Positions 23,051 through 58,458 are shown, counted from the first letter of the stretch. The stretch is 64,000 nucleotides of DNA from Candidatus Hydrogenedentota bacterium (GCA_947486375.1 CANKTP010000001.1:17118-81117); one strand, 5' to 3'. Translations and numbers: made by a program. The notes: generated by a model not told the origin, from the sequence alone.

Positions 23051-23086
23051 GCCGGGGTCTTGTGCCGGGCGCCCGGACTCGTTAGC

Positions 23087-26000: not shown

Positions 26001-26152
26001 CCGTCCTGACGGCCCGGATCATCATCCGGATGATATCCAAGGTGCCGGAGAAGCGTTTCCCCTCGTATGACGAACTCATCGAGGCCCTGTCTCACGCACT
26101 CGAGTGGAACCGGGGCGGCGGCCAGGTAGACGGGAGCGAGGGAATTCATTGA
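23087..26152 (+). CDS. Multi-pass membrane sensor Ser/Thr protein kinase. It has an N-terminal PDZ-like segment, about 8 TM helices, a GAF-like domain and a Hanks-type kinase.
   Basis: The kinase motifs 'GKGGMSYVYLG', 'AVKV', 'HRDIKPRN', 'DFGLAR' and 'GTPDYMSPE' are present. A GAF-like block 'VLPMMIHDRMVGVVAFGDKAGFRNFS' is present. The start is uncertain: the track ORF begins with TTG at 23060, and ATGs lie at 23087, 23123 and 23333. Confidence 0.75.
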   Translation: MSGYEGSSGDALMETLGGSGSESGPESESPRQVSIPTVRPEKGGLRPDAPRTPSPAPQTRPREYDGFQFSSRFGRLRVPQGRMYPVSRWILLIAFVLASVYTVGRMIWSQTHTRLPNSFGLGLDSAHHAKIFNLDDGYRLVEVDGIPVGNPGTLSEVLDSSSAKETRLRFERQDRSRRIAREVVWVVSPELPEIDGPIHDSYLLGPGVDPGRYGMAGGERIVSVGGPWPGGPGWQRLFDVPDTGILRLTVQPAGRDLPPHDVIICHIDWSAQWTRFSVGSFLGFLGVFVFWRLPETRSSHGFTALTLMMGLSIFSGAVPHPYRLELENVARLLLHVLLPSAALLFVLRFSAWRLAVAKARFPMLLTWSLGACAIVANRRFFPDEADAGSLGSPIVRAMIGVYAALVLCALCGEPLARAFRARLRATDRQRGITMRFVACVALLLALVYAALSYWDVGRDIRIFLEFAVMACPAMLAYAVLRHGALEFRELIRDAAPYLALLVALPAAYAALVDGLLPLAGLWAGLEFGLASPVVMAALGLAAVLIRPRIRDHFQFRIQGVPANYDSLLQSFSEKAAIERMPQAFCDMAARELARTSHAPNVVIITRYPGDDSWNIAAATPGPRLERALECMDALVSLLQLSRREIRRDDLLEDVRYGEVRLRALAAMDELSASVVLPMMIHDRMVGVVAFGDKAGFRNFSTDDLRSLRRVTRHMAFTLWGMVDTLLARRNTRIVDLHPALPDVIGRWSISGFLGKGGMSYVYLGRHEGTEAAVKVANGAVQASVLLLERFHREALSMKRIDHPNIVHVLEVAHAKGEPYIALEYFSGGSLRDMVRTRGPLGEPEVLDYARQAVHGLNAALRHGVIHRDIKPRNLFLSSGGVLKVGDFGLARMEDISTITSVGDVLGTPDYMSPEVARGDRVDWRADQYALGITMYELLAGKRPFKSDRADALILQYLTGSVPDIRKQRPEVSVLTARIIIRMISKVPEKRFPSYDELIEALSHALEWNRGGGQVDGSEGIH

Positions 26153-48400: not shown

Positions 48401-50452
48401 AGAACCGGATTTATTACGGTAAGCAGCCTCCCCGTGCCTCCCACGGCTGCATTCAGCGCGAATCCGACTTCCGGAACCGCGCCGCTCGCCGTGGAGTTCG
48501 CCGACGAGTCTGGCCCGGGAAGCGAATCGATTACCGGGTGGGAGTGGGACTTCGGCGACGGCACGAGCAGCAATCTCCAGAACCCGGCGCATGTCTATGA
48601 AGTGGCGGGCGTCTATCCGGTTTCATTGGCCGTCACGACGAGCGTGGACGAGGACACCGAGGTCAAGAACGGTTTTATCACCGTGCGATCCGCGGCGGGA
48701 CCGGCGGCGGACTTTAGCGCGAGCCTCACCTCGGGTCCCGCGCCCCTCACCGTGCAATTCACGGACGAGTCGGCGGAGGGGAACGCGGAGATTGCCTCGT
48801 GGGCCTGGACCTTTGGCGACACCGGCACAAGTGCGGAGCCGAACCCAGGCCATGTATACGACGCCGAGGGGGTCTATACCGTCTCATTGACCGTCACGAC
48901 CCCGTTGGGAACCGACACCGAGACGAAATTCGGATTCATCGAAGTATTGGGTTCGGGCGGGGAGCTATGCGACGTCTATCTCCAAATCCACGAGCAATAC
49001 GACGCATTCCGCTCCCACTTTGGGATCGTGGACGATGACCTCGACGACGATGGGTTGCCCGACGAAGCGCTGCTCGATCTGCTTCAAGGGTTGCTGTGCC
49101 CGGACCTCACGAAGGCGACGGTCGCGGATGCGGCCCTGCGCGCCGCCTTTGACACGAACCTCGCCGAACTGATTGCGCGGAACGATCCGGCGGTCGCCGA
49201 GTATCGCGAGCTACTGGCGCTGCTCCTGGCCGTGTCCGCAGAGAGCCGCGACGCCGTCATCGCCGAACTTGCCGCCGACGGCGTTACGCTTGCCGCCTCT
49301 GGCTTCGATACGTTGACGGGCGAGGACGCCCTATACGACGGAGGGGCGGACTTGGACGGCGACGGCGTGTCCAATGCCGACGAGTACGATCTCTTCGAGG
49401 CAACCTGCGATATCTGTAGCATCGAGGACTTGGTGGATGCCGTCAACAATCCCCTCAACGTCGGCGCCGAGCTGAGCATTTGCGAATCCCTGGGCGAAGT
49501 CGAAACCCAGTACGCGGCCTTTGTCGCCGCGTTCGCCGCCTCCATCGATCGAAACGACGACATCGACAACGATTTGCTTCCCGACGCCCATGCGCTTGCC
49601 CTGGTCGAGTTCACCTGCGGATTGGTCGACTGCGGGCTGTCGGGAGATTTGCGCCTGGCCTACGCCGGAAATTTGGCCGCCCTGGACGGCGAGAATCCGG
49701 CCGCCGTGACCGCGCTCGAACCATACCGCAACGTCTTAGCTGCGCTGATGACCCTCGGCGACGCCACCGTTCAAGCGGTGAAGGACATTGTCGCGACCCA
49801 GGCTTCCCTCACCGGCGCCTACACCGCCGTCGAGGGCGCTACCGTGGGGTGTATCGCGAACGCCGGGGCCGGGGTCAGCGAACTCTATTCAGCCGCCGGC
49901 GACTTCGACGGGGACGGATTCACGAACTTGGACGAATACGACAACGTAGCGGCCCGTGCCGGAACGACGATTGCCGATTTCGTCGAGGCGGCAACGGATC
50001 CCGGCTCGGATGGGTCCGCCGACAATCACGTCCCTTCGTTGAATGCCGTTGGCGACCAACAGGTCAAGGAAAAACAGCCACTGACATTCGTGATTTCGGG
50101 AGGCGATCCGGATGCCGGCGACTCATTAACGTACAGCGCCACCAACCTTCCCCCGGGCGCCTCGTTCGATCCGGCGACTCGTACATTCGCCTGGACACCC
50201 GCGGCGGGCGATGCAGGGACCTATCCCGGCGTGGTGTTCAAGGTTGCCGACCATGCCGGCCTATCGGACTCGGAATCGATAGCCATACTTGTCACCCCGG
50301 GCGGGTGCGGCTCCGCCGCAGATGGGCACGGCGGCGCCCCGGCGCCCCAAGGCGACCTTGAGTTGTCGCTGACGATCGCCGCTTTCCTGTATGCGTCGAG
50401 AAGGCGCGGCGGCTCCGGCGCACACCGCGAATCGGATGTAGCGCCCCGATAG
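27452..50452 (+). CDS. Giant (about 7,670-aa) mosaic cell-surface protein with many repeated modules and an embedded I9-S8 subtilase.
   Basis: A single uninterrupted 23-kb ORF; the track start at 27428 is TTG. A GTG at 27452 is preceded by GGGAGGGG and gives '...GFRVPVLAFTLVALLGAFAASAAEY' (signal-like). The domains were recognised by eye. I9 propeptide + S8: 'VAVIDTGIDYTHPD' (Asp), 'HGTHVAGTIGAVGN' (His), 'GTSMATPHVAGVAALL' (Ser). Five PKD domains: 'FGPAPLTVQFTDES...WNFGD....PNP.HVY...GVYTVSLTVTT'. Nine cadherin-like domains: 'NRPP.L..IGDQ...EG..L.FTVTATDPDGD.LTY......PGA.FDP.TG.F.WTPG'. Ca-binding loops: 'DLDGDGVSNADEYD', 'DFDGDGFTNLDEYD'. The C-terminus is '...LELSLTIAAFLYASRRRGGSGAHRESDVAPR'. 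Confidence 0.8.
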   Translation: MRHQPESETGGGVSGFRVPVLAFTLVALLGAFAASAAEYATEFFEGTDVDLGGQSFTFTPDASGGNYAVCRSLAAAFPAAVDAAAQIVLGDDDFEEIVLLDGATVGYFGQSYTSVFVGSNGYLTFGSGDWGYFESLEAHFDFPPRISALFDDLNPTAGGSVFFEQAADRIAVTFQDVPEYSVGGANSFQVELFFSGTIRITYLGLSTLDGLAGLSAGQGLPDDFQESDFSGLPMGCDDLAISPQAPFDSYGLVGGPFGPSAKVYTLSNAGTQPLDWNAGTISPVTWMSVVPTGGTLNPSESVVIAVALTGEADTLPASAVPYSTLIAITNATSARTSFLEAGLEIRNPPGDLLIRDNVIPRYDRRLSFRDVAVGSTGGVPNSALGVISLKNLGPGALTIARIGLMRYFESFSDGLASGWTPDVGDNWAAANSMFRARNTSTDPDFMTAVESTEWNEDIAVEVTTVQQGNDSHPHGIAIAASEGFDAGEFDGTLHATGSGYVFLIASNGAFSAWKFENGSQIPLKAWSYSAAIESVANDLRVTAVAEPDGGVRFRFAINGTQAWSGEDLEPLPNGRIALIGYSEGNSTIYRFDNILVSPPGAEDGVSASTPAFGLPADSLPDLPLTIEAQAEASFDVLFQPDHEGDFRDVLVILSDDADDPDAQVSLEGAGESVIEIVHDPLPDTVDLGPYSAIAAITAGAGLLESELWLYYRVVSGGPFARLPLSVLESGSYFAEIPAQALGTQVEYYISASDVMGHVLTDPFRVPDRLHSFIVGLPSLVVTVLAPTLDVELASGDSQTIPASVRLDNVGYGDLIWSVGETVRSLAGTIQSASLQPFAVRPGTEDIATKGVQQPASGSHSGVESIGGPDEGGYTYTDSIEPGGPSVGQYWVEISETGTNLGMTDDVYAFPIPLDFIFDFYGTAYTEVAVGSNGLIYFEDTYLGYGNSCIPGMNYYGVNRFIALYWDDLYPSGTNNVYWQVTGDAPNRKFVVQWHHVAHFGAGGDLTAQVQLFESGGKIVLLYQNAAPTFGQNATAGIQGDPETGLQYRCDAPNLEGGLAVLFQRGVGWLDEVPTSGRIPAGGSSTIDLVFDAAGLPPGYEEGARLVFSSNDADTAVPDFADASLRVAQAVRIDHDPLGDTGDTAGPYPVCANITAVEGVDTSALWAYYRVNGDGAFLPAPMSNTGGDNFCGSIPGQPIGTEVEYYLVAQDMLGGVTRHPPQAPSLVHAFHVVDASGQIEVIDPVEPSNDLFLPFSPPALEIGTSAVRTVTIRNAGLAALTITGILDSFLYRESFDDGLAQGWVEAVDSQWNAVDGEYRALTDQPGVWMQSTYAAATWEDLSASVVMRRAGDTGNVSALAVRTSPDFDLGSYSGSAYAVGIDGSGNFWVIRFSPGAYAWLQSWTFSPYLNTGESANEVTLSVEGPAIGVYFNGNLAWMGFDLGLAGPGGIALDGYSGYGLATTHVYDDFEVGQPLPAPAGLNAAQQWYNGHANEAGSPELAPPNDFVPPYPGGDPGALADATEVPETLPDVFELQAVPELPLLLAPDASVTFDVAFNPVETGEFSGAVVIESDDPVSPEVILVLTGMASEALALAHVPLPDTTNALGPYPVEALVTSLYGVASATLRWSIDAGQNFTEVEMVEGQAGVHSGNIPGQDSGTTVLYSIEVVDSLDASVADPVGGGTHQFQVTGIPNLTLSPSNLEFEIPHGETETREITLQNTGNWPATWSLRELFAPNLKALGVNAPQGGPGAAPLAGANRPKPPGGGPAVDWRTAHVPGRLLVKFAPTKSGLSAKASVHAFAGGRPIHSFRSIPLDVVQIPRGANLAAMAAAYRARPEVEYAEPDYIVQADVFPDDPAFAQQWALHNTGQTGGLEDADIDAPEAWDTQTGSATVVVAVIDTGIDYTHPDLAANIWINEAEANGTPGLDDDGNGIADDLHGARWTDGTGAPTSGDPMDGNGHGTHVAGTIGAVGNNGTGPAGVAWDVRLMGLKFLTDSGSGSISDAVSALEYAIEMGAHVSSNSWGGGGFSQAMADMIDAARAANQLFIAAAGNESQDNDANPHYPSSYELDNILSVASSDQADAMSWFSNHGATSVDLAAPGSDIYSTWPGGGYNTISGTSMATPHVAGVAALLLGSAPDTPYSDLKAWLLSSADVLPAWSGLTLSGARLNASAALGNSGKPWIDEDPIEGTLASGESKTIAVTVDTTRLENGFSDTAILSIAGDPDGAIEAGVSLNVAGYVAFDHDPLVDTTASGDYEVCAMITALSGSIVRTELFWSVDGGAFTAIPMTGSGGGNLDCAAIPAQAVGSDVCYYIEAEDDQGHVQRRPFEGAVAPICFQVQGIPNLEVALPEPGGLDFFLNPGAAETRGIVITNSGTWPVDWSLGLPGAGVLTTTIVDLPAISAIPRAGISGVLPEGWASSGRPSSREAVRSLIRADATPVDLLILSPNSVPSTLQAGLEAFEDIGALDYFDAAISPPIPADLAPYGVVIVANGFYWADAEATGNVLASYVDSGGKVIVAEAGFDGFWGYGLQGRFADESYGPFVGGLIDQSIQRTLGAHDADHPIMAGVESLADSVVTLVDLQPGAQWVAEWGDGVPLVAVMDFSSVVGINMFPFDYGNISGDYISLFHNAVVWLADGGTSNGWMSMGSASGRLDPGASVEVLITADATGLHDGFHACRGLELSGDPDGVLDVTACLTVYNGALFLGHSPLEDTSNEGPYPVETTIVSASGVSRADLYWSTDGGAVFATTPMIPISGDSYGASIPDQPVGTIIDYYLEAEDGIGNIAAEPDTAPALLHRFEVVSTPPDIFVTDSVVPADDGIVSFDPPIPIGSSSVESITVENLGEQPLTLSGASVAYRVSDNNSPQGPAFDWIEIGVSGTNLALIDDSYSYPISLPFGFEFYGNEYTDIAVGSNGAVYFEDKYFAFANSCIPGSGAVDVSRFIALYWDDLSPSGIDNVYYQIVGEAPSRRLVVEWSNVPHVCCGGSLTAQVQLFESTGHILYLYSETDPGEGEGATAGIQDSPSQGLQYSCDDSVLAPGLAVLFQPERYFALENLPDFPAVLDQFDSLSFDVRFQSPDIGNFLGAVSIRSDDPDAPEVQVDVAGSAVDVIVIGHNPLGDTSLAGPYSVEATIAAPHGLVRADLLWSVDGGNSFTSTLLSIVSGDLYEASVPGQPVDTVVDYYIEAEDSMGSVRREPADAPFATHRFSVVPPSGDIAVSDTALPADDRWIPYSPPIVGPGDSVLHTITVDNAGLGNLVITSIRAGLYYVENFEDGLPQGWTESVDSHWTVTGGEYRAQAGFPGVSMQSRYDAASWDNLSARALIRRTGNSSNVSVLAVRTSPDFDYATFAGSAYATGINVDGTYWVIRFSPGGFSWLQSWTFSPYLNTGEATNDVMFSIDGDAINVYFNGNLAWSGFDSGHGEAGGIALVGYSGSLFEIAHFYDDVEVGLPVPPVEGLSAAQAWYNNRPLEGGTPAEAPPGAAIAEFPGTAGGPIVGDALSAESVMPAFVTEGLPSLPAVLGPGQSFAFEVRFQPEAQGEFTETLFINSDDPDTPALEVGLTGTAGDLFGIEHGPLGDTINDGPYVLGATITAANGIARADTIWTADGGATFSSVSMANVSGDHYVAAIPGGHPDGTVIGYYIEVEDAVGNIDTGPGGAPVELYEFTIEAPPGDLAVFDSVDPVDDRLLPFSPPTVTVGSSVVETITVLNDGLGPLTIGSVLGGLFYAENFNDDLAQGWVETVDAQWNVSGGAYAAREDVLSTWMQASYDTAPWENFSASVRMSRTATASNTSAFAVRTSPDFDIQTSTGSAYATGILGDGTFWVIRFSPGGYAWLQSWTFSAYLNTGEAVNDVAMSVSGDAIAVYFNGHLAWSGSDSGIPDAGGIALMAYNNPEGIYLYDDIEVGLPIPSADGLSEAQAWYNSHPLEGGSPWEAPAESMVAAFPGELGDPMASDNRTSGGELGLESVGYSALFNSGTDGFTADPVMGGGLWHQTAGCEAASGDHSTPGALYYGVDGACNYDAGITAGAVVSPPIALPGDATATLTFAYFLETERAPSYFDMASVEVSSDGGVTYTLVAHNDANAGAALIEETEGAWRQLTVNLAAFAGDEIVIRVGFATVDSGANTYRGFYIDDLSVDLDSTQPFEFEGLPALPAVLAPGESFVFDVRFQPIVDGPFTGVVHIESDDPETPSARVDLSGMAQFAIVIDHTPLGAAAADGPYAVDAAILSQAALVRSEVFWSTDGGANYASVPMAIVSGDLYQALIPGQPVGTQIKYYIEVEDSLGLVIAHPAAAPGETHQFDIVIYPGDIEVTDSVEPPDDFSAPFSAVNIGASATETMTIRNNGLGPLSIENISEAAAPGMNSAPDSVGGPDAGGYTFIDNYEPGGPAFDWIDVTGTGTNLNLVDESSSPPIAIPFAFEFYGSAYDAFVVADNGAIYFEGGYFGYANACLPDGGVSGIGAFIAPYWADLYPGGTNNVYYQVVGDAPNRRLVIEWYNVYSVIGGETVTAQVQLFENGGDILFLYEDAYPVYGGYAAAGIQGDAVTGISYSCQQGDLYPGLAVLFEPGDAPGEGEGEGPSAFFIEGLPEFPATLAPGDSLSFSLRFEPIVAGEYSGTVSIESDDPSSPVIETNLTASGFEAFGVAHDPLEGAYDFAPYAICLELSAFEGLNPAELWLYYSIDGGVTYAGPLPLILSGEGVYCADIPAQLAGATVHYYAVLRDALGRVGTFPLGSPWSFEVAGTPDFEADHPDEIVFVLNPGASQTQTITVGNTGPQATAAGEWHIASDVLLAYAGGPKPDELRRQLEAFPEVARVEAFDASRSTPTLDELEDFNVVIVLSADSFADPLAMGDVLALYAAGGGKIIQTLATFESSAAWELGGAFARDYSPFTSGEFQFRYMQLGDYDLAHPIMASIGFIEAEFAVGVGLAEDAEPVADWDDGTPAIATRGGNVVAMNVLPFAQGEWQADANVQQLLRNAIEWLNRQWLSVFPVSGNLEIGSETVVSLTASAEGFSDGDETTTTLVIAGDPHPDGNIERTVRLIVDEYLSIVHEPLENTPDAAGPYLVDATITAENGVNESKLKLYYSVNRGPIEEVALQPLGLGAYRGEIPGQPFGTLIEYYLSAQNAIGQLLTNPIEAPDDRHAFRVFDPSSNLFAATFETGGDGFVFDNGAGTGGGLWHHTTACQAVGAEGALYYGIDASCSYDAGNTQGFAVSPPVVLPPPGQSATLTFSYFLETEGLPSSYDRASVEVSTDGGASWGLVAHNYAGAAAGLVLLQDPTASWRRATVNLSAFAGSEIMLRLGFATGDSIANGHKGFYVDDLSIDLAPDCEVPANPSPADAEANVAVNVTLAWDQAKALAEYLAALRAGETGVESLVRGSDETPLFPPVPSETPPVVVPDALASVAIFQNLAPWGTASNQVVLTANGISHQIFGSADMGYVDLAGFDKVIVSSVQDAQFYAALAANRDWFEDYVISGGLLDLHLASYTSAPADGLELPGGFVTQSLLSSSVSIADPFHPIVTVPHAISHAELQGWNYSTHGIFSSAPLDAVPIVNETGSGLPCAMELALGAGRILATLQTVEWIGSSPNYFENMTLHELGGCAPSYDVYFGTDPNSLARVYTGLEQPYCDFPSLSPGTVYFWQVDAIRCCGATLGPVWSFTTGTGQLSVDAFEADDSPQSASPIALNGVPQERTLDRPGDVDWAIFFAAAGQAIHVDATASAPGAQLFVQLYRLEGIALVAESVPLGNRDVSASIEWTADASGGYLVRVATATPAATGASAAYRLDVWVESIIPSTLIVRAVDEATGEPIDGVEIIIDDLANGYFTNEDGLFTLPMEPGPHTVCANGGAVGFTATCESPANVDVSDSEQEVVQFELDPDAKLEVTPAGLNFGRVYLGSTVERLVTVTNVGTGTRVITGDALWNALGPIRIMDGSHYVLDPGQSSQVIVEFAPLAPAITQGTMEFTTGVRGSETIVVSGTGRENAAPVLAGIGPKAFTENQAGSFTVTASDVDGDTLTYGVSNAPEGAVFDPGTRTFSWTPDFDNAAAYPGVTFTVTDDRAPFRSDTETITITVQNTNRPPVLNSIGDQAFTEGQFDRFTVTATDPDGDDLTYTAIGLPSGAALDSVTGECSWSPGFESLRSYSGVQFIVTDDGLPVPLQASGPITITVANTNRVPFLDSVEDQSVAEGETLSFTVTASDFDGGTPVLSVSNLPGGATFDPATGNFAWTPGTTDAGPYEVTFIATDGEGLAGTMSVTITVTNVNRAPSLDPIDNQSIAEGELLTFTLSATDPDDDTLTFGATDLPGDATLNATTGVFVWTPGYEDASEYPVEFTVSDGAAPPVAGAVVITVSNTNRAPALSPIGSRAAGEGETLTIVLSAFDPDGDAIAYAAFGLPEGAQFDPGTATFTWTPGFGESGNYGVEFAVTDNGTPVLSASEAITISVGDVNRPPALEAVGDRQALEGERLALTLTSVDLDAEDTMTYLMTNAPTGAELDPVTGSFGWTPGFDDAGVYTGVVFTVADDGTPIESDFESITITIINSNRAPELAEVADREVAEGAPLEIALGASDPDSGDARTFAMSNTPPGASLNPITGVFAWTPGFDDAGRYDVAFTVTDDGTPAPLDDAELVTITVTNTNRPPTLAAIADSEILVGQRLEIALDAVDPDSTDRLTFGVTGLPPGEGSIDPITGVFAWTPSATGTYEAMFTVTDDGTPGPLQASETATIAVSALPVAAFSADVRLGTAPLTVQFTDESVSGSAEITSWNWNFGDDTFSEEQHPGHDYASDGVYTVSLTVTTATGTDAEIKTGYITVTGDPASPTAAFSADVLFGPAPLTVRFSDESAPGTAPITAWAWNFGDSGPIGADPDPEHVFALEGVYSVSLTVTTAGGIDLEIKTAYITVGNDPVPPVADFNADARFGPAPLSVQFVDESRPGSTGITEWLWNFGDAATSTQPNPRHVYESDGVYTVSLTVTTGVDDNTATRTGFITVSSLPVPPTAAFSANPTSGTAPLAVEFADESGPGSESITGWEWDFGDGTSSNLQNPAHVYEVAGVYPVSLAVTTSVDEDTEVKNGFITVRSAAGPAADFSASLTSGPAPLTVQFTDESAEGNAEIASWAWTFGDTGTSAEPNPGHVYDAEGVYTVSLTVTTPLGTDTETKFGFIEVLGSGGELCDVYLQIHEQYDAFRSHFGIVDDDLDDDGLPDEALLDLLQGLLCPDLTKATVADAALRAAFDTNLAELIARNDPAVAEYRELLALLLAVSAESRDAVIAELAADGVTLAASGFDTLTGEDALYDGGADLDGDGVSNADEYDLFEATCDICSIEDLVDAVNNPLNVGAELSICESLGEVETQYAAFVAAFAASIDRNDDIDNDLLPDAHALALVEFTCGLVDCGLSGDLRLAYAGNLAALDGENPAAVTALEPYRNVLAALMTLGDATVQAVKDIVATQASLTGAYTAVEGATVGCIANAGAGVSELYSAAGDFDGDGFTNLDEYDNVAARAGTTIADFVEAATDPGSDGSADNHVPSLNAVGDQQVKEKQPLTFVISGGDPDAGDSLTYSATNLPPGASFDPATRTFAWTPAAGDAGTYPGVVFKVADHAGLSDSESIAILVTPGGCGSAADGHGGAPAPQGDLELSLTIAAFLYASRRRGGSGAHRESDVAPR
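32790..33980 (+). other. Embedded peptidase inhibitor I9 propeptide + subtilisin-like S8 serine protease domain inside the giant ORF. It has an intact D/H/S triad.
   Basis: I9-like segment: 'GRLLVKFAPTKSGLSAKASVHAFAGGRPIHSFRSIPLDVVQIPRG...EVEYAEPDYIVQA'. S8 motifs: 'DTGID', 'HGTHVAG', 'GTSMATPHVAG'. Confidence 0.75.
45400..47640 (+). repeat. Array of 8 tandem ~280-nt coding repeats (cadherin-like/He_PIG-type domains) within the giant ORF. A 9th copy lies at about 50020-50300.
   Basis: Eight consecutive ~93-aa units each begin 'NR[AP]P.L' and contain 'F[TA]VTA[TS]D.D.D.LT[YF]...P.GA..D..TG.F.WTPG'. Confidence 0.7.
47640..48950 (+). repeat. Array of 5 tandem ~270-nt coding repeats encoding PKD domains within the giant ORF
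   Basis: Five units of the form 'A[AD]F.A.....GPAPL.V.F.DES..G...I..W.W.FGD........P.HVY...GVY.VSLTVTT......E.K.G.ITV'. Confidence 0.75.
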
Positions 50453-50478
50453 ACTCCCCACACAGGATGACTATTGAG

Positions 50479-50520
50479 CGTCCCCCTGGATGGGTTCGAG
50501 GGGGACGTTTCTTGCTTTTC
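50479..50520 (+). terminator. Rho-independent terminator after the giant gene
   Basis: CGTCCCCC-(13-nt loop)-GGGGGACG is followed by TTTCTTGCTTTTC, starting about 27 nt after the stop codon. Confidence 0.65.
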
Positions 50521-50554
50521 CGCGCTATCCACACCTTCGTTTCGAGGGTGTAGA

Positions 50555-50595
50555 GAATACCCTTCTATTGTAGTCATATCTCTGATATAATCCGG
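50555..50595 (+). promoter_or_regulatory. AT-rich putative promoter for murC, with a TATAAT box at about 50587-50592
   Basis: 'cttctattgtagtcatatctctgaTATAATccggacacataccatatattgcaatgg' is the only AT-rich patch between the terminator and murC. The -35 element is weak (TTCTAT). Confidence 0.3.
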
Positions 50596-50622
50596 ACACA
50601 TACCATATATTGCAATGGCTTC

Positions 50623-52092
50623 TTGGCTTTACACAATAATTCGGCGGAGTCCGCAAGGGTGAACGGCGTCAAACGAAAAGTTCATTTTGTCGGTGTGGGC
50701 GGCATCGGCATGAGCGGACTTGCCGAAATCCTCCTGAATCTCGGATACGAAGTGTCCGGCTCCGATATTCACGCATCGGAAATCACCCGCCGCCTCGAGG
50801 AATTCGGGCTCTCCTTTCGCGAGGGCCATCAGGCATCGAATATCGGCGATGCTGGCATCCTCGTCGTCTCCGCCGCGGTGGCTGCGGACAATGTCGAGGT
50901 TGTCGCCGCGAAAGATCGCTCGACTCCCGTCATTCACCGGAGCGATTTACTCGCGGATCTGCTCCGGCTGAAGCCAAATGCGGTGGTGGTGGGCGGCACC
51001 CACGGCAAGACGACAACGACCTCGATGATCTCCGCCATCCTCGACCGGGCGAACATCGGGGCGACCTCGATCATCGGGGGCATCCTCCATCGGAGCGGCA
51101 CGAACGCGCGCTGGGGGACCGGCGAATATATTGTCGCCGAGGCCGACGAGCACGACGGATCGTTCCTGCGGCTTCACCCGACGATCGCGGTGGTGACGAA
51201 CATCGACGCCGAGCACCTCGAGTATTACGGCACCATTGACCGGATCAAGCGGGCCTTCGTCGATTTTTGCAATGGCGTGCCCTTCTACGGGTATTCGATC
51301 CTCTGCCGCGACGATGCCGGTGCCCGCGCCATACTCGAGCATGTGGACAGCGTGTGCCTTACCTATGGATTGGACGACGGTGCCTCGTTGACCGGGTCGA
51401 ATGTCGTCCTTGCCGAGGGGCGTCCCGGCGAATCCAACCTGCAGGGGCTCTCCCGCCTGCGTACCCGCTTCGACGTCACGAGCCATGACGCGCGCCTGCG
51501 CGCCACGGGCCGCCTGGGGACCGTCGAGATCAATGCAATTGGCGAGGACAACGTTCGCAACGCCCTCGCCGCGTGCGCCGTCGGCCTATGCCTCGGGATG
51601 CCGTTTCAGCGTATCGCCGATGGCCTCCGGGATTTCGACGGGGTACAGAGGCGTTTGCAGGTCCGGGGTACCGCCCGCGGGGTGGTCGTGGTCGAGGACT
51701 ATGCCCATCATCCGACCGAACTCGCCAGCACGCTGAACGCCGTCCGTTGGGCCGCGCCCAAGCGCGTCATTTGCGTGTTCCAACCGCACCTCTACAGCCG
51801 CACGAAATTCTTTAGCGACGACTTTGCCCGTGTCCTGTCGACGGCCGATCGGGCCGTCGTGACCGCAATCTATCCGTCGCGGGAGGAGGCCATGCCGGGC
51901 GTGGACGCCGCGCTCATCGTGGATGCCGCCCGCTCCGCGGGGGCCGAGCATGTCGAGCTGATCGAGGACATGAATGACGTCCCCGGGAGGCTCGCACCTG
52001 ATTTGCGCGCGGGTGACCTCGTGCTTGTGCTCGGCGCGGGAAACATCAACCGGATTGCCGGTCCGCTCTTGCGGGAAATTGAGGCGCGCTGA
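50623..52092 (+). CDS. murC: UDP-N-acetylmuramate--L-alanine ligase
   Basis: 'VHFVGVGGIGMSGLAEILLNLGYEVSGSD' and 'VVVGGTHGKTTTTSMI' are present, with a Mur ligase C-terminal domain. The track start is TTG; a GTG 12 codons downstream is an alternative. Confidence 0.85.
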   Translation: MALHNNSAESARVNGVKRKVHFVGVGGIGMSGLAEILLNLGYEVSGSDIHASEITRRLEEFGLSFREGHQASNIGDAGILVVSAAVAADNVEVVAAKDRSTPVIHRSDLLADLLRLKPNAVVVGGTHGKTTTTSMISAILDRANIGATSIIGGILHRSGTNARWGTGEYIVAEADEHDGSFLRLHPTIAVVTNIDAEHLEYYGTIDRIKRAFVDFCNGVPFYGYSILCRDDAGARAILEHVDSVCLTYGLDDGASLTGSNVVLAEGRPGESNLQGLSRLRTRFDVTSHDARLRATGRLGTVEINAIGEDNVRNALAACAVGLCLGMPFQRIADGLRDFDGVQRRLQVRGTARGVVVVEDYAHHPTELASTLNAVRWAAPKRVICVFQPHLYSRTKFFSDDFARVLSTADRAVVTAIYPSREEAMPGVDAALIVDAARSAGAEHVELIEDMNDVPGRLAPDLRAGDLVLVLGAGNINRIAGPLLREIEAR

Positions 52093-52871
52093 TGGCACGG
52101 CCCCGCAAACGCAGGCGGGCTGGACGCGGACGTTTCGTCGATCGTCCCATCGCATATGTCCTGGAGGCCGCGCTCGCCCTCGGCCTGCTCTACACGTTCG
52201 GCCAATCGTTCTATTCATACGCGCAGACCTCGCCTGCCTTCGGCGTCCGGAATATCCAGGCCCTGGGACTCCAGCGGCTCGACCTCGACGAGGTCGTCGC
52301 GGCGTCGGGCCTCACCACCGGGGACAACCTGTTGTTCCTCGACAAGGACGCCATCCGCGCGCGCGTCGAGTCCATGCCCTATGTGAAGTCCTGCGGCTTG
52401 CGGGTATCGTTTCCCGATCTCGTCATCCTCGACGTGGTCGAGCGCGAACCCTTCGCGGCGCTCTTGGTGCATAGCCGGTCATATGAGATCGATGCCGACG
52501 GCACCGTGTTGCGGGAGGTTGGCACCGCCGAGATGCCCCTCGCGCCCTTCATCAGTTGCGTGGGCGGACTGGAATTCGTCGACCTCGGCGACCGCATCGG
52601 CCTGCCCGCCCTGCAAGCCGCCCTCGAGCTTTGGAAAGTGTTCGGCGCCTCGCCGCTCGCGCGGCAATTCGAGATATCCGAAATCGCCGCGATTCATGAG
52701 GACGACCTTCGAATGTACGGTGCGGCCGTTCCCTACGAATTGCGCTGGGGACGGGGTGAATTCGCGGACCAGGCCCGTCGCCTAGAGATTCTATGGGAAA
52801 ACAAGGGAGGAGAGTTGGGATGCAACGAATTCCTCGATCTACGTTTCGGCGAAGGCCTGGTCTGCCGCTAG
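52092..52871 (+). CDS. ftsQ: Cell division protein FtsQ/DivIB (TM anchor + POTRA domain)
   Basis: The ATG overlaps the murC stop (ATGA). The N-terminus is basic and followed by a TM helix 'IAYVLEAALALGLLYTF'. A POTRA-like block 'VRNIQALGLQRLDLDEVVAASGL..GDNLLFLDKDAIRARVESMPYVKSCGL' is present. Confidence 0.75.
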   Translation: MARPRKRRRAGRGRFVDRPIAYVLEAALALGLLYTFGQSFYSYAQTSPAFGVRNIQALGLQRLDLDEVVAASGLTTGDNLLFLDKDAIRARVESMPYVKSCGLRVSFPDLVILDVVEREPFAALLVHSRSYEIDADGTVLREVGTAEMPLAPFISCVGGLEFVDLGDRIGLPALQAALELWKVFGASPLARQFEISEIAAIHEDDLRMYGAAVPYELRWGRGEFADQARRLEILWENKGGELGCNEFLDLRFGEGLVCR

Positions 52872-52965
52872 GATGGCCAACCGCGATACCGGGTTTGGAA
52901 ACATGCGTGATAGGATTATCAACGGGGTCTTCCGGGGCATGCCGGAAGCACGGAAAGGACCAGCG

Positions 52966-54222
52966 ATGAACATCGGGATATCGGATGAGCTCACGTCGTT
53001 CGACCAGGGGGCCGTCATCAAAGTCTGCGGCGTCGGCGGCGGCGGCAACAACGCCGTCATGCGGATGATCGAGGAGGGGCTTTCGGATGTGGAATTCATT
53101 GCAATCAATACGGACGCCCAGGCCCTCAAGAAGTCGCCGGCGGCGGTCCGGCTCCAAGTCGGCGCAGAGGTCACCGGCGGACTCGGTTCCGGCGCCAAGC
53201 CCGAGATAGGCCAGAAGGCCGCGATGGAGGATCGCGAGCGCATCGCGGATGTGCTTCGCGGGGCCGACATGGTCTTCATCACGGCCGGCATGGGTGGCGG
53301 CACCGGCACCGGCGCGGCGCCGATCGTGGCCGAGGTGGCCCGCTCGGGCGGCGCGCTCACGGTTGGGATCGTCACGCTCCCCTTCGGTTTCGAGGGAAAC
53401 GAGCGGATGGACAACGCCATGCGCGGCCTGGAGGCGCTCGAGCAACATGTCGACACCCTAATCGTCGTTCCCAACGATCGGGTCGCCGAGCTGTGCCAGA
53501 ACAACGTGTCGCTCCTCGATGCGTTCAAGCGCGCCGACGAGGTCCTCCATAACGGCGTGCGCGCTATCAGCGAGTTGATTACGGTTCCCGGTCTCATCAA
53601 TCTCGACTTTGCCGACGTGCGCACCATCATGCAATCCCGCGGCCGCGCCTTGATGGGGATCGGGGTCGCCGAGGGCGAGGGCCGCGCCATCCGCGCGGCC
53701 GAGGAGGCCATCATCTGTCCCTTGCTCGAGCAGTCGAACATACACGGCGCCATGGGCGTCATCGCCAACGTCAAGGGCGGGCGCGATATCGGCATGCGCG
53801 AGGTGCAGGATGCCGTGACCGCCGTGCAGAGGGCCGCGCATCCCAACGCCAACATCATTTTCGGCGCGGTCGTGGACGAACAAGAGCGTACCCAAATACA
53901 AGTCACCGTCATCGCAGCCGGATTCAGCAACCGCGCCACCGGGGGCCTTGCCCGCCAGCACCGCGCCGCCGCCGCGGACAATGTGATCGAGCTCCGGTCG
54001 AAGGAGCCCAAGGCCCGCGAGGTGGCTCCCGTGGCCGCGGCGCCCGCCTCCGCGGTTCCCGAGGTGCCAAGTCCCGCGACCGCGCAACCCAAGGCGCCGG
54101 AGCCCGAGCCGGATTATTTGTTTCCCCAAGACGAGCCCGCCGCCCGTCTCCCCAAGGCCTCGGATCCGGACGACGATATGAGCATTCCCGCGTTCATGCG
54201 GAACCGGAAGAAGTCGTCGTGA
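52966..54222 (+). CDS. ftsZ: Cell division GTPase FtsZ
   Basis: 'IKVCGVGGGGNNAV', the tubulin signature 'GMGGGTGTGAAPIVA' and 'NLDFADVRTIM' are present. The track ORF starts at 52873. The internal ATG at 52966 has GAAAGGA 6 nt upstream. It gives an N-terminus of typical length, 15 aa before 'AVIKV'. Confidence 0.85.
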   Translation: MNIGISDELTSFDQGAVIKVCGVGGGGNNAVMRMIEEGLSDVEFIAINTDAQALKKSPAAVRLQVGAEVTGGLGSGAKPEIGQKAAMEDRERIADVLRGADMVFITAGMGGGTGTGAAPIVAEVARSGGALTVGIVTLPFGFEGNERMDNAMRGLEALEQHVDTLIVVPNDRVAELCQNNVSLLDAFKRADEVLHNGVRAISELITVPGLINLDFADVRTIMQSRGRALMGIGVAEGEGRAIRAAEEAIICPLLEQSNIHGAMGVIANVKGGRDIGMREVQDAVTAVQRAAHPNANIIFGAVVDEQERTQIQVTVIAAGFSNRATGGLARQHRAAAADNVIELRSKEPKAREVAPVAAAPASAVPEVPSPATAQPKAPEPEPDYLFPQDEPAARLPKASDPDDDMSIPAFMRNRKKSS

Positions 54223-55325
54223 AAGACCATCGGGACCAATTTTTAAAACTGCTCCAGCGTGCCATCCAGAAGGATGCCTCGGACATACATATGAAGTCGG
54301 GCAGCCTGCCGTATTACCGCATTGATGGCCGGGTCGAGCCCCAGGGCTCCGAGGCCCTCCAGACGGAAGACATCGAGACAATCCTTTCCGTCCTGTTCAG
54401 CGACGAGCAGCGCAAGCACTTCGCGCGTAACGGCGATATCGACCTCGCGTTTACCGAGCGCGGCGTCGGACGTTTCCGCGTCAACGTGTTCCGCCAACGC
54501 GGGCTCGTGTCGATTGTGATGCGGCGCATCAAGAGCAAGATCCTGAATTTCGAGCAGCTCTATTTGCCCGAGGGCGTGCGGCGCCTCACCGAGTTCGTCC
54601 GCGGCCTTGTGCTCATCACCGGCACGACCGGCAGCGGGAAATCCACCACGCTCGCCTCGATCATCGACGCCATCAACGACACGCGCAAGTGCCATATCGT
54701 CACCATCGAGGACCCGATCGAGTTCGTCCACACCGACAAGAAGGCCGTCGTCAACCAGCGCGAGATCAACATCGACACCCGGGACTTCTCCTCCGCCCTA
54801 AAGGCCATGATGCGGCAAGACCCCGACGTGATTCTCATCGGCGAAATGCGCGACTTCGAGACCTTCCAAGCCTGCATTTCCGCCTCCGAGACCGGGCACC
54901 TGGTCTTCAGCACCCTGCACACGTCCAACGTGATGCAAACCATCGACCGAATCATCGATCTGTTCCCGTCCACCCAGCACGACCAGGTCCGCTCGCAGCT
55001 CTCGTTGCAACTCAAGGCCATCATGTGCCTGCGGTTGCTGCCCAGGGCCGACGGAATAGGCCGCGTTCCCGCCTGCGAATTGCTCTTTGGGAGCCCGATG
55101 GTGCGCAAACTCATCAAGGAAAACCGGATATCGCAGATCGAGACGGCCATCCAACAGGGTCGCGACGACGGGATGCTCACCTTCAACGACAGCCTCTACG
55201 GCCTGATCAAGTCCAAGCTCATCACCTACGAAGAAGGCCTCAATATCTCCGAAAACTCCGAGGAACTCAACATGATGCTCCAGGGAATCCGCCTGAATTC
55301 GGCCCGCGGCGGCATCATGAGGTAA
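54219..55325 (+). CDS. pilT: Type IV pilus retraction ATPase PilT/PilU family
   Basis: The GTG start overlaps the ftsZ stop (GTGA). 'ASDIHMKSG...YRIDGRV', Walker A 'GTTGSGKSTT', 'TIEDPIEF', 'ILIGEMRD' and the His box 'TLHT' are present. Confidence 0.85.
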   Translation: MKDHRDQFLKLLQRAIQKDASDIHMKSGSLPYYRIDGRVEPQGSEALQTEDIETILSVLFSDEQRKHFARNGDIDLAFTERGVGRFRVNVFRQRGLVSIVMRRIKSKILNFEQLYLPEGVRRLTEFVRGLVLITGTTGSGKSTTLASIIDAINDTRKCHIVTIEDPIEFVHTDKKAVVNQREINIDTRDFSSALKAMMRQDPDVILIGEMRDFETFQACISASETGHLVFSTLHTSNVMQTIDRIIDLFPSTQHDQVRSQLSLQLKAIMCLRLLPRADGIGRVPACELLFGSPMVRKLIKENRISQIETAIQQGRDDGMLTFNDSLYGLIKSKLITYEEGLNISENSEELNMMLQGIRLNSARGGIMR

Positions 55326-55523
55326 AAGTACCCTTGGGCCGCGCGGCGAAGCGGCCCGATGCGCATATGGTTCGATAATGCCGCGGGATTACCCGCAGAA
55401 ATCCCGCAGTGCCTGCGGGCCCTGCGCTTCGGAATGTCACTTGGGCGTCGTCCGGATGATCGCGCGGGCTCGATACGTTATAATGCGTGCGCTGCCCCCA
55501 CCGAGAAATCAAGGAGAACCGGC

Positions 55524-56393
55524 ATGTTTCGCGGATCGGTTGTCGCGTTGGTCACCCCGTTCAAGCAGGATTTCAGCATCGATTTCGACGCCTACGCGCG
55601 CCTGATCGAGTTCCAAATCGAGAACGGCACGCACGGCATTGTCCCCTGCGGATGCACGGGCGAAGCCGCCACCCTGAGCCACGACGAGCAGAAGGCGATC
55701 ATCAAGTATTGCGTCGAGCGCGTCGCGGGGCGTGTAGCCGTGGTCGCGGGGACGGGATCGAATAACACCAAGGAAGCGCTCAATCTCACGGCCTACGCCA
55801 AGGAAGTCGGCGCGGACGCGGCGCTATTGATCACCCCCTACTACAACAAGCCTACCGCCGCCGGGCTCATCGCGCACTACACCCTCATCGCCGAGAAGAC
55901 CGGCATTCCCATCATGCTGTACAACGTGCCGGGCCGGACAGGGACCAAGATTAGCCCCGAGACCATCGCCCAACTCAGCAAGGTTGCCCACATCGTGTCT
56001 GTGAAGGAGGCCTGCGGTAGCGTCGAGCAAGTCACGGACATCCTCAGTCTCTGCGACATCAACGTCATGTCGGGCGACGATTCGTTGACCCTTCCCATGA
56101 TGGCGGTGGGCGCACGCGGCGTCGTGTCGGTCGCGGCGAACGTCGTCCCGGACCGCGTGGCCGCCATGTGCAACGTATTCGACGAGGGCGACATCGAGGG
56201 TGCCCGGAAGATTCACTACGAACTCGCGCCCTTGGTCAAGGCCCTCTTCGTCGAGACCAACCCCATGCCCGTCAAGGCGATTCTCGCCGCAATGGGCATG
56301 ATCGAGAATGTCCTTCGGCTTCCCCTCACGCCAATGTTGCCCGAGAAATTCCGCTCGATAGAGCCCGTCATCGGCGCCTTGGCGGTTTCCTAG
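55524..56393 (+). CDS. dapA: 4-hydroxy-tetrahydrodipicolinate synthase
   Basis: An internal ATG at 55524 has AAGGAG 8 nt upstream. 'MFRGSVVALVTPF', 'GIVPCGCTGEAATLS', 'GTGSNNTKEA' and the Schiff-base lysine context 'VSVKEA' are present. Confidence 0.85.
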   Translation: MFRGSVVALVTPFKQDFSIDFDAYARLIEFQIENGTHGIVPCGCTGEAATLSHDEQKAIIKYCVERVAGRVAVVAGTGSNNTKEALNLTAYAKEVGADAALLITPYYNKPTAAGLIAHYTLIAEKTGIPIMLYNVPGRTGTKISPETIAQLSKVAHIVSVKEACGSVEQVTDILSLCDINVMSGDDSLTLPMMAVGARGVVSVAANVVPDRVAAMCNVFDEGDIEGARKIHYELAPLVKALFVETNPMPVKAILAAMGMIENVLRLPLTPMLPEKFRSIEPVIGALAVS

Positions 56394-56463
56394 GGCTTCG
56401 ACGGGATCGATTCCTTCGCCGATCCGGGAACACGCACTCGGCGGTTCCGCGCCGTCATTCATC

Positions 56464-57054
56464 TCAATCGCCGTCGCGAATCTGCCTGACCGTCGCCAAG
56501 GGAAACCCGGACACCTTTCGGATTCGGTCGAACGGCAGATATACGCCGTACACCCTGCCGATGATCGATGCCTTGGGCACCCCCGCGACTCGGGGCGGCG
56601 ACGATTCCTCGACCGCCCAGTTGTGGCTGTCGACGCTCTCGTTCCGGTTGTCGCCGAGCACGAAGATTTCATCTTCCGCCACCCGGTAGGGTTCGAGGGC
56701 ATAGTCGATCTCCTCCCGCAGGTAGGGTTCCGACGCGAAACTTCCGTTCAGGAACAGCGCCCCTCCGCGAACCGAGACCTCGTCGCCGCCGAGCGCAATC
56801 AGGCGTTTCACCAGATACTCGCCCGGAAACACCGGGTCGTCTATCACCACGATGTCACCGCGCCGATACGGTTCGCCCTGTAGTGTCACGAGATACTCCG
56901 GCGGCACAAGGGTCGGCTCCATCGAGCGGGTGGGCACGACGAAGAAACGCATCTGGCGGGCCACGAGAAGGTATATCAAGCACAACGATAAGACAATGAT
57001 GAGAACGTACCGGACATTTCTCCGAAAAAGGGAGGTCCTTCGGCTACGGCGCAT
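56464..57054 (-). CDS. lepB: Signal peptidase I
   Basis: The TM anchor is 'YVLIIVLSLCLIYLL'. The catalytic Ser block is 'VVPTRSMEPTL', the Lys block is 'YLVKRLIALGGD' and 'VLGDNRNESVDS' is present. Confidence 0.85.
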   Translation of the reverse strand: MRRSRRTSLFRRNVRYVLIIVLSLCLIYLLVARQMRFFVVPTRSMEPTLVPPEYLVTLQGEPYRRGDIVVIDDPVFPGEYLVKRLIALGGDEVSVRGGALFLNGSFASEPYLREEIDYALEPYRVAEDEIFVLGDNRNESVDSHNWAVEESSPPRVAGVPKASIIGRVYGVYLPFDRIRKVSGFPLATVRQIRDGD

Positions 57055-57150: not shown

Positions 57151-58098
57151 TCACGACTTCGGCGCGGCCGGGGCTTGCGCCCGCTCCAGTAATTTCTTGG
57201 TCGGGTCGCTGTCCGGGTGCAACTCGAGCGCGGCGTGGAGAGGCGGCACCGCCAGTTCCGGCTTGCCTTCGTTTAGCCGGCAACGGGCCTCGTTCAAGTA
57301 CGTGTGGAACCGGTCTTGGTTGGTCCGGGCCAGCGTGCGCGCCGCCGCAAAGGCCTTCGCGGCCTCCCCCCAATCCACCTCGACCTTGAAGTTTTCCCCC
57401 GCAAAAAAATTCACGGCGTAATCCAGGCACATTTCGTAATCGTCCGGTGCGAACTTCGCGGCTTCGCGCGAGAGCCGCATTGCTTCCTTGTAAATCTTCT
57501 CCGGCTTCATGTCGTATCGGGCCTGGATGTCTGGGAAAAACAAGAGGTACATCTGCGCGAGGTTGTAGAGGTAGTCGGGATTCTTCTTGTCCAACTTCAA
57601 CGCCCGGCCCAGGTGAGTTAACCCCCGTGTGGGATCGCCCGAATGAAAGTAATGGATTCCAAGGTTGTTATGGGCCCGGTGTTCCTTCTCGTCGAGCTGC
57701 AAGGCCAACAACCACAACCGCACCCCGTCCATCGACTGGCCCCGGTAATCGTACATCACCTCGCCGAGGTACGTGTTCGCGCGCGCGTTATTCGGATAAC
57801 AATCGAGCGCATAACGCCAAGCCGTCTCGACCAAGTCGATCCGCCGCGTCGATTCCTCGATCTTCGCCTTTGCCAAGTCCTCCTTTTGCGCCGAGGCATA
57901 TTCGCCCGCGAGGGTCCGGTCCCATTCGACGAGGTCCTGCTGTTGCTTGTCGAGCCGGCGAACGGCGTCCACGAGCGCCTCCTCGTCGTCTTGAAGCGAC
58001 AACAGGTGCATCAATTCGAGAGGGAGCGGCGGATCCGCGCACATGCCGGGGAACGCCCCCGCGAACGCGACCAAGCCCATGACGACGAAATGTTTCAT
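57151..58098 (-). CDS. Secreted TPR-repeat protein
   Basis: The signal peptide is 'MKHFVVMGLVAFAGAFPGMCA' (ATG at 58098; an alternative ATG lies 4 codons upstream at 58110). Multiple 34-aa TPR-like units are present, for example 'ANTYLGEVMYDYRGQSMDGVRLWLLALQLD' and 'AHNNLGIHYFHSGDPTRGLTHLGRALKLD'. Confidence 0.65.
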   Translation of the reverse strand: MKHFVVMGLVAFAGAFPGMCADPPLPLELMHLLSLQDDEEALVDAVRRLDKQQQDLVEWDRTLAGEYASAQKEDLAKAKIEESTRRIDLVETAWRYALDCYPNNARANTYLGEVMYDYRGQSMDGVRLWLLALQLDEKEHRAHNNLGIHYFHSGDPTRGLTHLGRALKLDKKNPDYLYNLAQMYLLFFPDIQARYDMKPEKIYKEAMRLSREAAKFAPDDYEMCLDYAVNFFAGENFKVEVDWGEAAKAFAAARTLARTNQDRFHTYLNEARCRLNEGKPELAVPPLHAALELHPDSDPTKKLLERAQAPAAPKS

Positions 58099-58125
58099 GA
58101 CAAACCCCATACAATCCGGTGGGAG

Positions 58126-58458
58126 TTAAATAAGTTGGAGTTCCGCGACTTCCATCCCGCCTTCGTGGCGGAACGTCACTCCAAGGGGAAGCTCCTGGCC
58201 CCGGCGAACGATGTGAAAACGGGCCTGTTGCGGATGTCCGTTGGATGCCGGGGGAAGGTTGGCCAGCTCGCGCAATCGCGAAAGCAGGTCCACCGTCTCC
58301 TTGGCCGGCGGGTGTGGAAACGCCACATACTCGCCGCCCACCCGCATCTCGATGCGGAACCCGCGTTCGATCCGGGTTATCCGGATGTCGTTCGTCTCCA
58401 GCCGAAGCGCCTCGACGACGAGACTGCGAATATAGGTGTCGATCGAAGAGTAGTCCAT
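58126..58458 (-). CDS. Orphan ~110-aa protein resembling only the N-terminal (N2) region of GspE/PilB/PilT-type secretion ATPases. It has no ATPase core.
   Basis: The ATG at 58458 has AAGGAG 7-8 nt upstream. 'NDIRITRIERGFRIEMRVGGEY...LSRLRELANLPPASNGHPQQARFHIVRRG...LGVTFRHEGGMEVAELQLI' aligns by eye to the region preceding the Walker A in these ATPases. The first corresponding block is ASDIH..p....R.DG. The second is sRik.la.ld.ae.R.PQDGR. The third is lRvSt.Pt..GEkvvlRil. Confidence 0.5.
   Translation of the reverse strand: MDYSSIDTYIRSLVVEALRLETNDIRITRIERGFRIEMRVGGEYVAFPHPPAKETVDLLSRLRELANLPPASNGHPQQARFHIVRRGQELPLGVTFRHEGGMEVAELQLI

Follow-up and report, generated by a model that had tools for sequence, protein, structure and literature searches.

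Why would the gene for a type IV pilus ATPase begin on the stop codon of ftsZ? The question is raised by a 64,000-nucleotide (nt) stretch of DNA from a Candidatus Hydrogenedentota bacterium (GCA_947486375.1, CANKTP010000001.1:17118-81117), hereafter the window, in which murC, ftsQ, ftsZ, a PilT-family ATPase gene (pilT) and dapA follow one another on the same strand between 50.6 and 56.4 kb. Gene families were assigned with Pfam and NCBIfam profiles, and coordinates are positions in the whole window unless a related locus is named. The gene order had been proposed in a sequence-only reading of the same DNA, and the family profile matches bear it out. The explanation that we favor overall, at a probability of roughly 0.6, is that ftsZ and pilT are coupled cistrons and that an ordinary PilT is expressed in step with division. 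The features concerned are:

50659..52092, + strand: murC, encoding UDP-N-acetylmuramate--L-alanine ligase (TIGR01082, 447 bits; cutoff 335)
52092..52871, + strand: ftsQ (POTRA_1, 48.5 bits)
52872..52965, + strand: ftsQ-ftsZ spacer of 94 nt, containing the Shine-Dalgarno-like sequence GGAAAGGA
52966..54222, + strand: ftsZ, encoding 418 amino acids (aa) (TIGR00065, 408 bits; cutoff 295)
54169..54219, + strand: region encoding the FtsZ C-terminal peptide DDDMSIPAFMRNRKKSS, with the partner-binding motif and basic tail
54219..54222, + strand: GTGA, the pilT start on the ftsZ stop, proposed as the translational coupling site
54219..55325, + strand: pilT-family type IVa pilus ATPase gene, 368 aa (TIGR01420, 440 bits; cutoff 319)

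The pilT start codon (GTG, 54219-54221) overlaps the ftsZ stop codon (TGA, 54220-54222), as the sequence-only reading had noted. The source annotation speaks against this overlap, as it calls pilT (P0001, on a 91-kb contig, ENA ERZ27280197 k141_1955775) as a 344-aa protein from ATG 54291, 100% identical over 93% of the query. Were that call correct, a 68-nt spacer (54223-54290) would separate the two genes and there would be no translational coupling, a reading that we consider highly improbable. In the pilT frame, GTG 54219 is the only ATG, GTG or TTG ahead of ATG 54291. The 24 residues gained by starting there (KDHRDQFLKLLQRAIQKDASDIH) are conserved in all orthologues, match the PilT family profile from position 2, and, in alignments with solved PilT structures, fall on the first helix, which a start at Met25 would remove. 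The whole product covers positions 2-343 of the 343 in TIGR01420, and gene callers on three other contigs picked the overlapping start. Given the sole upstream start codon, the conserved N-terminus, and the profile and structure alignments, we judge that GTG 54219 is the start, that the GTGA overlap is real, and that the existing annotation is 24 codons short and so hides it.

A Shine-Dalgarno-like purine-rich stretch lies 4-20 nt 5' of pilT in all 13 junctions tested. The mean free energy (dG) of its duplex with the anti-Shine-Dalgarno sequence is -5.35 kcal/mol before pilT versus -2.99 for background windows inside ftsZ, an enrichment that is soft, and to that extent a point against coupling, since these bases also serve as lysine and arginine codons and the sequences are phylogenetically related. 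A fusion of FtsZ and PilT through a -1 frameshift was considered and rejected: there is no slippery site, and the frame of pilT (-1 relative to ftsZ), although it stays open over 666 nt of preceding sequence in the window, does so over only 45-200 nt in other loci.

Upstream of this junction, two details of the sequence-only reading had to be revised. The overlap between murC and ftsQ is not ATGA; the murC TGA and the ftsQ ATG form TGATG and share one base. Nor does ftsZ directly follow ftsQ. The ftsZ frame is open from 52873, one base past the ftsQ stop, yet the orthologue alignments all begin at Met32, corresponding to ATG 52966, where the source gene caller also starts ftsZ. ATG 52966 is most likely the ftsZ start, which therefore leaves the 94-nt spacer after ftsQ, and GGAAAGGA lies 7-14 nt 5' of this codon. 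For murC, the maximal open reading frame (ORF) runs from TTG 50623, and GTG 50659, from which the source gene caller obtains 477 aa, is the more likely start. FtsZ itself matches both PF00091 (tubulin-type GTPase) and PF12327 (C-terminal domain). Its C-terminal motif, D/E-[ML]-[SGD]-IP-[AT]-F-[ML]-R, is kept in 12 sequences and reads DMSIPAFMR in the window. In other bacteria this peptide binds FtsA or SepF, and its good conservation here is consistent with a membrane anchor encoded elsewhere.

Is the arrangement peculiar to one contig? The sequence-only reading had proposed comparing synteny in related genomes, and we ran that comparison with an FtsZ-based scan limited to one genome per species, which yielded 16 genome bins with 60-79% FtsZ identity to the window. 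We assign the window lineage, by sequence, to Candidatus Hydrogenedentota. Thirteen of the 16 loci had enough downstream sequence to be informative for pilT linkage, and four more contigs were retrieved through close PilT homologues. The order murC-ftsQ-ftsZ-pilT occurs in 11 of the 13 informative loci and in all four further contigs, one of them 445 kb long. The ftsZ/pilT junction is tight in every one of the 16 related sequences that carry it: 13 have four-nt overlaps (GTGA or ATGA), two have one-nt overlaps (TAGTG) and one has a two-nt gap (TAA-tc-ATG). The form of the junction thus varies while its tightness is kept, even where FtsZ identity has fallen to about 58%. Co-expression of pilT and ftsZ, which the sequence-only reading had suggested, is still something that we infer, and this phylum-wide conservation strengthens it considerably. 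The two loci without pilT (L003 and L010) both retain ftsZ, and in a neighbor-joining tree of FtsZ the first of these is sister to the pilT-bearing L004, so that pilT was lost secondarily in L003.

The flanks of the four-gene block vary. A giant gene upstream and dapA downstream occur in the window only; elsewhere the neighbors are dnaA, a TIR-domain gene, ExbB-type genes, convergent sensor genes, or a block of TolQ-like, TolR-like, CpoB-like-TPR and VWA genes. As a background control we took 80 generic pilT loci from metagenomes, among the matches listed, at 42-50% identity. None had ftsZ, ftsQ or murC within 4 kb; upstream sequence reached 1.5 kb or more in 45 of the 80, and 41 had tandem PilT-family genes. 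To call the ftsZ-pilT arrangement unusual, as the sequence-only reading did, is therefore fair by comparison with these loci, and needs qualifying by a precedent in Clostridium perfringens (PMC6958937).

Some of the related loci have features of their own. In L008, dnaA (1450-2856) lies about 3 kb 5' of murC, and in some Hydrogenedentota the murC-ftsQ-ftsZ-pilT block may be close to the origin of replication. In L007 (bin DUZM01000191.1), a gene for a 530-aa TIR-domain protein (6113-7705) stands between ftsQ and ftsZ, an unusual place for a defense-type gene. Three loci (L002, L005 and L010) are labeled "uncultured Nitrospirales bacterium", yet their FtsZ, MurC and PilT are as close as those of the Hydrogenedentota bins (62-73% FtsZ identity); the first two have murC-ftsQ-ftsZ-pilT and the third has murC-ftsQ-ftsZ without pilT. 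These labels are probably wrong.

What kind of PilT is encoded behind ftsZ? In the PDB, PilT retraction ATPases match best (309-356 bits), ahead of PilU at 291 bits. The top structural relatives by sequence come from Geobacter, Aquifex, Thermus and Pseudomonas, with G. metallireducens PilT4 (6ojx) at 356 bits, and the window protein is about as near to the solved PilT structures as genuine PilTs are to each other. The Walker A (GTTGSGKST), Asp box (EDPIE), Walker B (DPDVILIGEMRD) and His box (ETGHLVFSTLHT) motifs are invariant in 11 orthologues, as is TGHLVFSTLHT at the His box. The Walker A of this clade has Thr where most PilTs have Pro, as do 6 of 119 generic PilTs among the matches listed. 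Genes for PilB, PilC, PilM, PilQ and pilins were looked for in the 64-kb window, and none was found. For 179 genomes of the phylum, Data Set S1 of PMC11406978 records pilT and pilC in 100%, pilB in 98%, pilM in 89%, pilQ in 85%, pilA in 83% and pilU in less than 2%. With pil genes near-universal in the phylum, a pilus machine for PilT to act on is almost certainly present. Because the catalytic motifs are intact, the closeness to solved structures is PilT-like and the phylum carries pil genes, the ftsZ-linked protein most probably functions as an ATPase that retracts type IVa pili.

Eight related loci (L001, L002, L005, L008, L010, L012, L015 and L114; for example, L008 11432-16836 and L114 7280-12752) carry an additional block of genes downstream. 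It lies directly 3' of pilT in seven of the eight, and 3' of ftsZ in L010, which has no pilT. The block encodes a TolQ/ExbB-like protein, a TolR/ExbD-like protein, a TPR protein of about 785 aa whose eight repeats are of the YbgF/CpoB type (TIGR02795, 293 bits), and a protein with a VWA domain. For TolQ and TolR the scores fall short of the family cutoffs (87 vs 221 bits and 57 vs 127 bits, respectively). A search of the window for this TolQ/TolR/TPR/VWA block did not find it, and it is also missing from several other loci. Tol-Pal and CpoB are associated with division in model bacteria, and the block may represent a module for the envelope or division that resembles Tol-Pal.

Several observations weigh against an ordinary retraction motor expressed in step with division. 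At the site of AIRNLIRE, a motif conserved in PilT and lacking in PilU (PMC6762196), the window reads MVRKLIKE, with four of eight residues identical. The orthologues follow the pattern x-x-x-[KR]-L-[IV]-K-[ED], in which the first three positions vary and position 7 is always Lys; generic PilTs among the matches listed retain A-[IV]-R-x-[LI]-[IV]-R-[ED]. A structural-modeling preprint (10.1101/2025.10.30.685630) places AIRNLIRE in the predicted PilT-PilC interface. The solved Thermus "pili retraction protein PilT" (5fl3) carries YVRELLKD at the same motif, however, and divergence from AIRNLIRE therefore does not exclude retraction. The occurrence of pilT (K02669) in 179 of 179 bins, many of them presumably incomplete, probably reflects several PilT paralogues per genome, in which case the ftsZ-linked copy need not be the main retraction motor. 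The Tol-like block downstream is a hint that the gene's setting is division or the envelope and not a pilus. Finally, where two essential codons overlap, inertia tends to keep them so, and conservation of the overlap is to that extent weaker proof of selection.

The absence of ftsA between ftsQ and ftsZ raises a separate question, namely whether the gene has moved or has been lost. We built a hidden Markov model (HMM) of FtsA from four outgroup loci; as a positive control, it recovered ftsA directly 5' of ftsZ in 10 outgroup loci. The model had no match at E<=10 in window ORFs of at least 50 aa or in the 16 related loci. Queries of the window with Ddl and MurB also had no match, the Ddl query being a single sequence of limited sensitivity, and murC and ftsQ abut, leaving no unassigned ORF space between them for ddl or murB. 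The local absence of ftsA and ddl that the sequence-only reading described thus stands. None of the proximal members of the dcw (division and cell-wall) gene cluster (mraZ, rsmH, ftsL, ftsI, murE, murF, mraY, murD, ftsW, murG) was found upstream, in the 27 kb before the giant gene. We had considered that the rest of the cluster might be found there, and this was ruled out, as the genes there are unrelated; upstream of murC lie the genes for a 7,674-aa protease/Ig-repeat protein, a kinase, SurE, an aminotransferase and others.

Published data suggest that the gene has moved. Pende et al. 2021 (PMC8178401, Supplementary Data 2) tabulate FtsZ, SepF and FtsA for five Hydrogenedentes genomes, and SepF is absent in all five. 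An FtsA homologue lies on a contig other than that of FtsZ in three (UBA2224, UBA6118 and JGI 0000039-J10), FtsA adjoins FtsZ in CG1_02_42_14, and one of the five has no FtsA. The available rows of that table (PMC8178401) also show single FtsA hits next to FtsZ, which suggests, and does not prove, that the survey search does not routinely catch PilM. Two genomics papers on Hydrogenedentota make no mention of ftsZ, ftsA or sepF. By analogy with the tabulated genomes, the window genome itself probably still has FtsA, and the absence from the cluster alone would be a relocation, a change of gene order. More broadly, that ftsA, ddl and murB are missing here probably reflects a rearranged gene order and not a genome-wide loss. 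The description of a minimal dcw cluster lacking ftsA, given in the sequence-only reading, accordingly holds for the locus only; in the phylum ftsA is probably found elsewhere, to judge from PMC8178401.

The probable limits of the proposed transcription unit are marked by the following features on either side of the four-gene block:

27428-50452, + strand: giant gene, 7,674 aa, with its stop codon at 50450-50452
50476..50519, + strand: terminator-like hairpin with a U-rich tail, 3' of the giant gene and forming the upstream boundary of the cluster
50582..50611, + strand: sigma-70-like promoter match (CTGATA, 18-nt spacer, TATATT), just 5' of murC
55326..55523, + strand: pilT-dapA spacer of 198 nt, the likely end of the unit
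55524..56393, + strand: dapA, encoding 4-hydroxy-tetrahydrodipicolinate synthase (TIGR00674, 365 bits)

The hairpin after the giant gene folds at dG -30.5 kcal/mol (z = -4.7; none of 200 shuffles folds equally well) and is followed by the U-rich tail UUUCUUGCUUUU, in agreement with the terminator that the sequence-only reading placed ahead of the cluster. The promoter-like sequence is the sole such match in 50300-56700; as a consensus match it is weak, with one found against 1.6 expected. After the pilT stop, the spacer contains a GC-rich hairpin without a U-tract, the fold of which is not significant (z -0.58). A TATAAT lies at about 55479, roughly 40 nt 5' of dapA, and AAGGAG precedes the dapA ATG; the dapA start is ATG 55524 and not 55359. 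An Rfam search of this spacer and of the whole window gave no matches, and a tRNA search of the whole window found none. The unit probably ends after pilT, given that dapA comes with a ribosome-binding site and a TATAAT of its own and lacks conserved linkage. The sequence-only reading had listed dapA after pilT; the 198-nt spacer, the separate ribosome-binding site and its absence as a neighbor in any related locus place it outside the unit. The giant gene was likewise ruled out as a member of the conserved unit, as neither it nor dapA has a homologue in any related locus.

Elsewhere in the window, very large repeat proteins of 1,098 and 2,120 aa with BACON/He_PIG domains are encoded upstream of the giant gene (29-3325 and 3070-9432), and the giant 7,674-aa ORF combines a subtilisin-type protease domain with many He_PIG/PKD Ig-like repeats; together they form a cluster of huge predicted surface proteins. 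A 1,030-aa protein (23060-26152, + strand) combines a GAF domain with a Ser/Thr kinase domain of eukaryotic type at its C terminus. Another, of 490 aa (18719-20191, + strand), contains a long stretch resembling a coiled coil, with a weak SMC match, and at its C terminus an MshEN-type cyclic-di-GMP-binding domain (PF05157; NF053729, 55 bits) with no ATPase attached. The usual hosts of MshEN-type domains are pilus-extension ATPases. Downstream, a called 110-aa ORF (58126-58458, - strand) matches the PilB/GspE N-terminal domain only (PF00437 positions 5-93, 29 bits), without an ATPase domain. Its neighbors are a TPR protein (57151-58110) and an acetyltransferase, and it lies near signal peptidase I (56464-56952). 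That this ORF is a fragment copied from the ftsZ-linked pilT was ruled out, as BLASTP showed no significant similarity; the ORF could encode a domain protein in its own right or be what remains of a gene.

How might such a locus work? We propose that it is a detached distal piece of the dcw cluster, typical of Candidatus Hydrogenedentota, consisting of coupled murC and ftsQ, a spacer, and coupled ftsZ and pilT. The spacer would carry the ribosome-binding site of ftsZ and so separate the two coupled pairs, and pilT would be the last cistron of the ftsZ-pilT unit. Ribosomes ending FtsZ would reinitiate at the overlapping GTG (termination-reinitiation), probably aided by the Shine-Dalgarno-like purine stretch that the codons of the FtsZ basic tail supply. 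The output of PilT would then be a constant proportion of that of FtsZ, and pilus-retraction capacity would track growth and division. More speculatively, PilT supplied alongside FtsZ could equip new poles with pilus machines. Other rod-shaped bacteria install their type IV pilus machines where the cell divides, at sites that become the new poles. A dependence on the AMIN domains of PilQ is described for P. aeruginosa (PMC10653833); we offer it as rationale, not as evidence. The gene identities, the overlap and its conservation are shown by the sequence data, whereas the single transcript, reinitiation, retraction activity and any link to new-pole assembly are inferred; for the first two of these this counts against the proposal.

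A competing account is that the adjacency has no functional meaning: pilT would have landed behind ftsZ once, in the ancestor of the phylum, and the overlap would have been kept by codon constraint. All cases do lie in one phylum and may represent a single evolutionary event, pilT has been lost at this position in two lineages (L003 and L010) with ftsZ kept, and compact bacterial operons often have stop and start codons that overlap. We nevertheless consider this account unlikely. The junction has been remodeled in at least three ways (a 4-nt overlap, a 1-nt overlap and a 2-nt gap, with ATG or GTG) and never loosened; the genes on both sides have been reshuffled repeatedly while the four-gene block survived; and the independent pilT-ftsA-ftsZ operon of Clostridium points to a recurring advantage.

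Quite unlikely, in our estimate, is that the ftsZ-linked PilT is a specialized paralogue acting at the division site and not a general retraction motor, either powering an envelope or division process with TolQ/TolR/CpoB-like proteins or driving a pilus-like assembly at the septum. The tight, phylum-wide coupling to ftsZ would fit such a role, as would the Tol-like block just downstream in eight related loci, although the TolQ and TolR matches are below cutoffs and the block is missing from the window and several loci. The diverged AIRNLIRE site, a predicted PilC contact, and the clade variant of Walker A (GTTGSGKST) point the same way; against them stand catalytic motifs and an overall sequence that are those of a normal PilT, and the Thermus PilT 5fl3, which is also non-canonical (YVRELLKD). 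The presence of pilT in 100% of the 179 bins implies paralogues able to carry the ordinary function, and no other pilus gene adjoins pilT in any locus; in well-studied bacteria, however, pilT commonly lies apart from other pil genes. We know of no PilT-family protein that acts in division. An extended version, which we hold to be improbable, is that a PilT-family hexameric ATPase was recruited to division, is made stoichiometrically with FtsZ from an ancestral ftsZ-pilT-tolQ-tolR-cpoB-like super-cluster, and acts at the septum. Septal PilT would then power envelope constriction or build new-pole machines, with ftsZ separated from ftsA, and it would be the first PilT-like motor with a role in division. 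On balance, we retain coupled expression of ftsZ with an ordinary PilT as the best explanation.

In practical terms, the analysis corrects the pilT start on the source contig and leads the ftsA-less ftsQ-ftsZ arrangement to be read as a change of gene order. The organisms are uncultured and current models are not overturned, so we regard the significance as moderate.

Set against the canonical dcw cluster of the E. coli/B. subtilis type (...murG-murC-(murB)-ddl-ftsQ-ftsA-ftsZ), the window retains the order of murC, ftsQ and ftsZ on one strand, with ftsZ as the last division gene. It differs in having no ddl, murB or ftsA between murC and ftsZ, in carrying a giant surface-protein gene upstream in place of the mraZ-to-murG part, and in adding a non-dcw gene, pilT, at the end. 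The lack of ftsA between ftsQ and ftsZ is shared with Actinobacteria and Cyanobacteria (PMC8178401). Those lineages, however, lack FtsA genome-wide and anchor the Z-ring through SepF, whereas the survey rows for Hydrogenedentes show no SepF and place FtsA elsewhere in three of five genomes (PMC8178401); in Hydrogenedentota, ftsA therefore seems to have been relocated and not replaced in the SepF manner. Compared with solved PilTs (6ojx, A. aeolicus 2gsz/2ewv and P. aeruginosa 3jvu), the window PilT aligns over its full length at 309-356 bits and contains the Walker A, Asp box, Walker B and His box motifs, and its C-terminal extension is similar to those of Geobacter and Aquifex PilT. It departs from them in MVRKLIKE, in the Thr of Walker A (GTTGSGKST) and in genomic context.

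For that context the closest parallel is C. perfringens, in which pilT-ftsA-ftsZ is one transcript by RNA sequencing (PMC6958937). The synteny is kept among near relatives in Clostridium, and the authors of that work took it to imply a link between type IV pili and the divisome that they left unexplained (PMC6958937). Both systems place a PilT retraction-ATPase gene in a unit with ftsZ and conserve the synteny among relatives. Co-transcription is demonstrated in C. perfringens, whereas in Hydrogenedentota it is putative. The phyla differ (Bacillota for Clostridium, Hydrogenedentota for the window), and so does the gene order: in C. perfringens pilT is upstream with ftsA between it and ftsZ, whereas in the window pilT is downstream, ftsA is absent and the start and stop codons overlap. 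The different phylum and gene order argue for an independent origin of the linkage. Two very distant lineages, some Clostridium and essentially a whole candidate phylum, would thus have brought pilT into the expression unit of ftsZ, a convergence that suggests real coordination of type IV pilus dynamics with cell division. Of the two, Hydrogenedentota would offer the cleaner test case, as the conserved stop/start overlap would fix the ratio of PilT to FtsZ synthesis.

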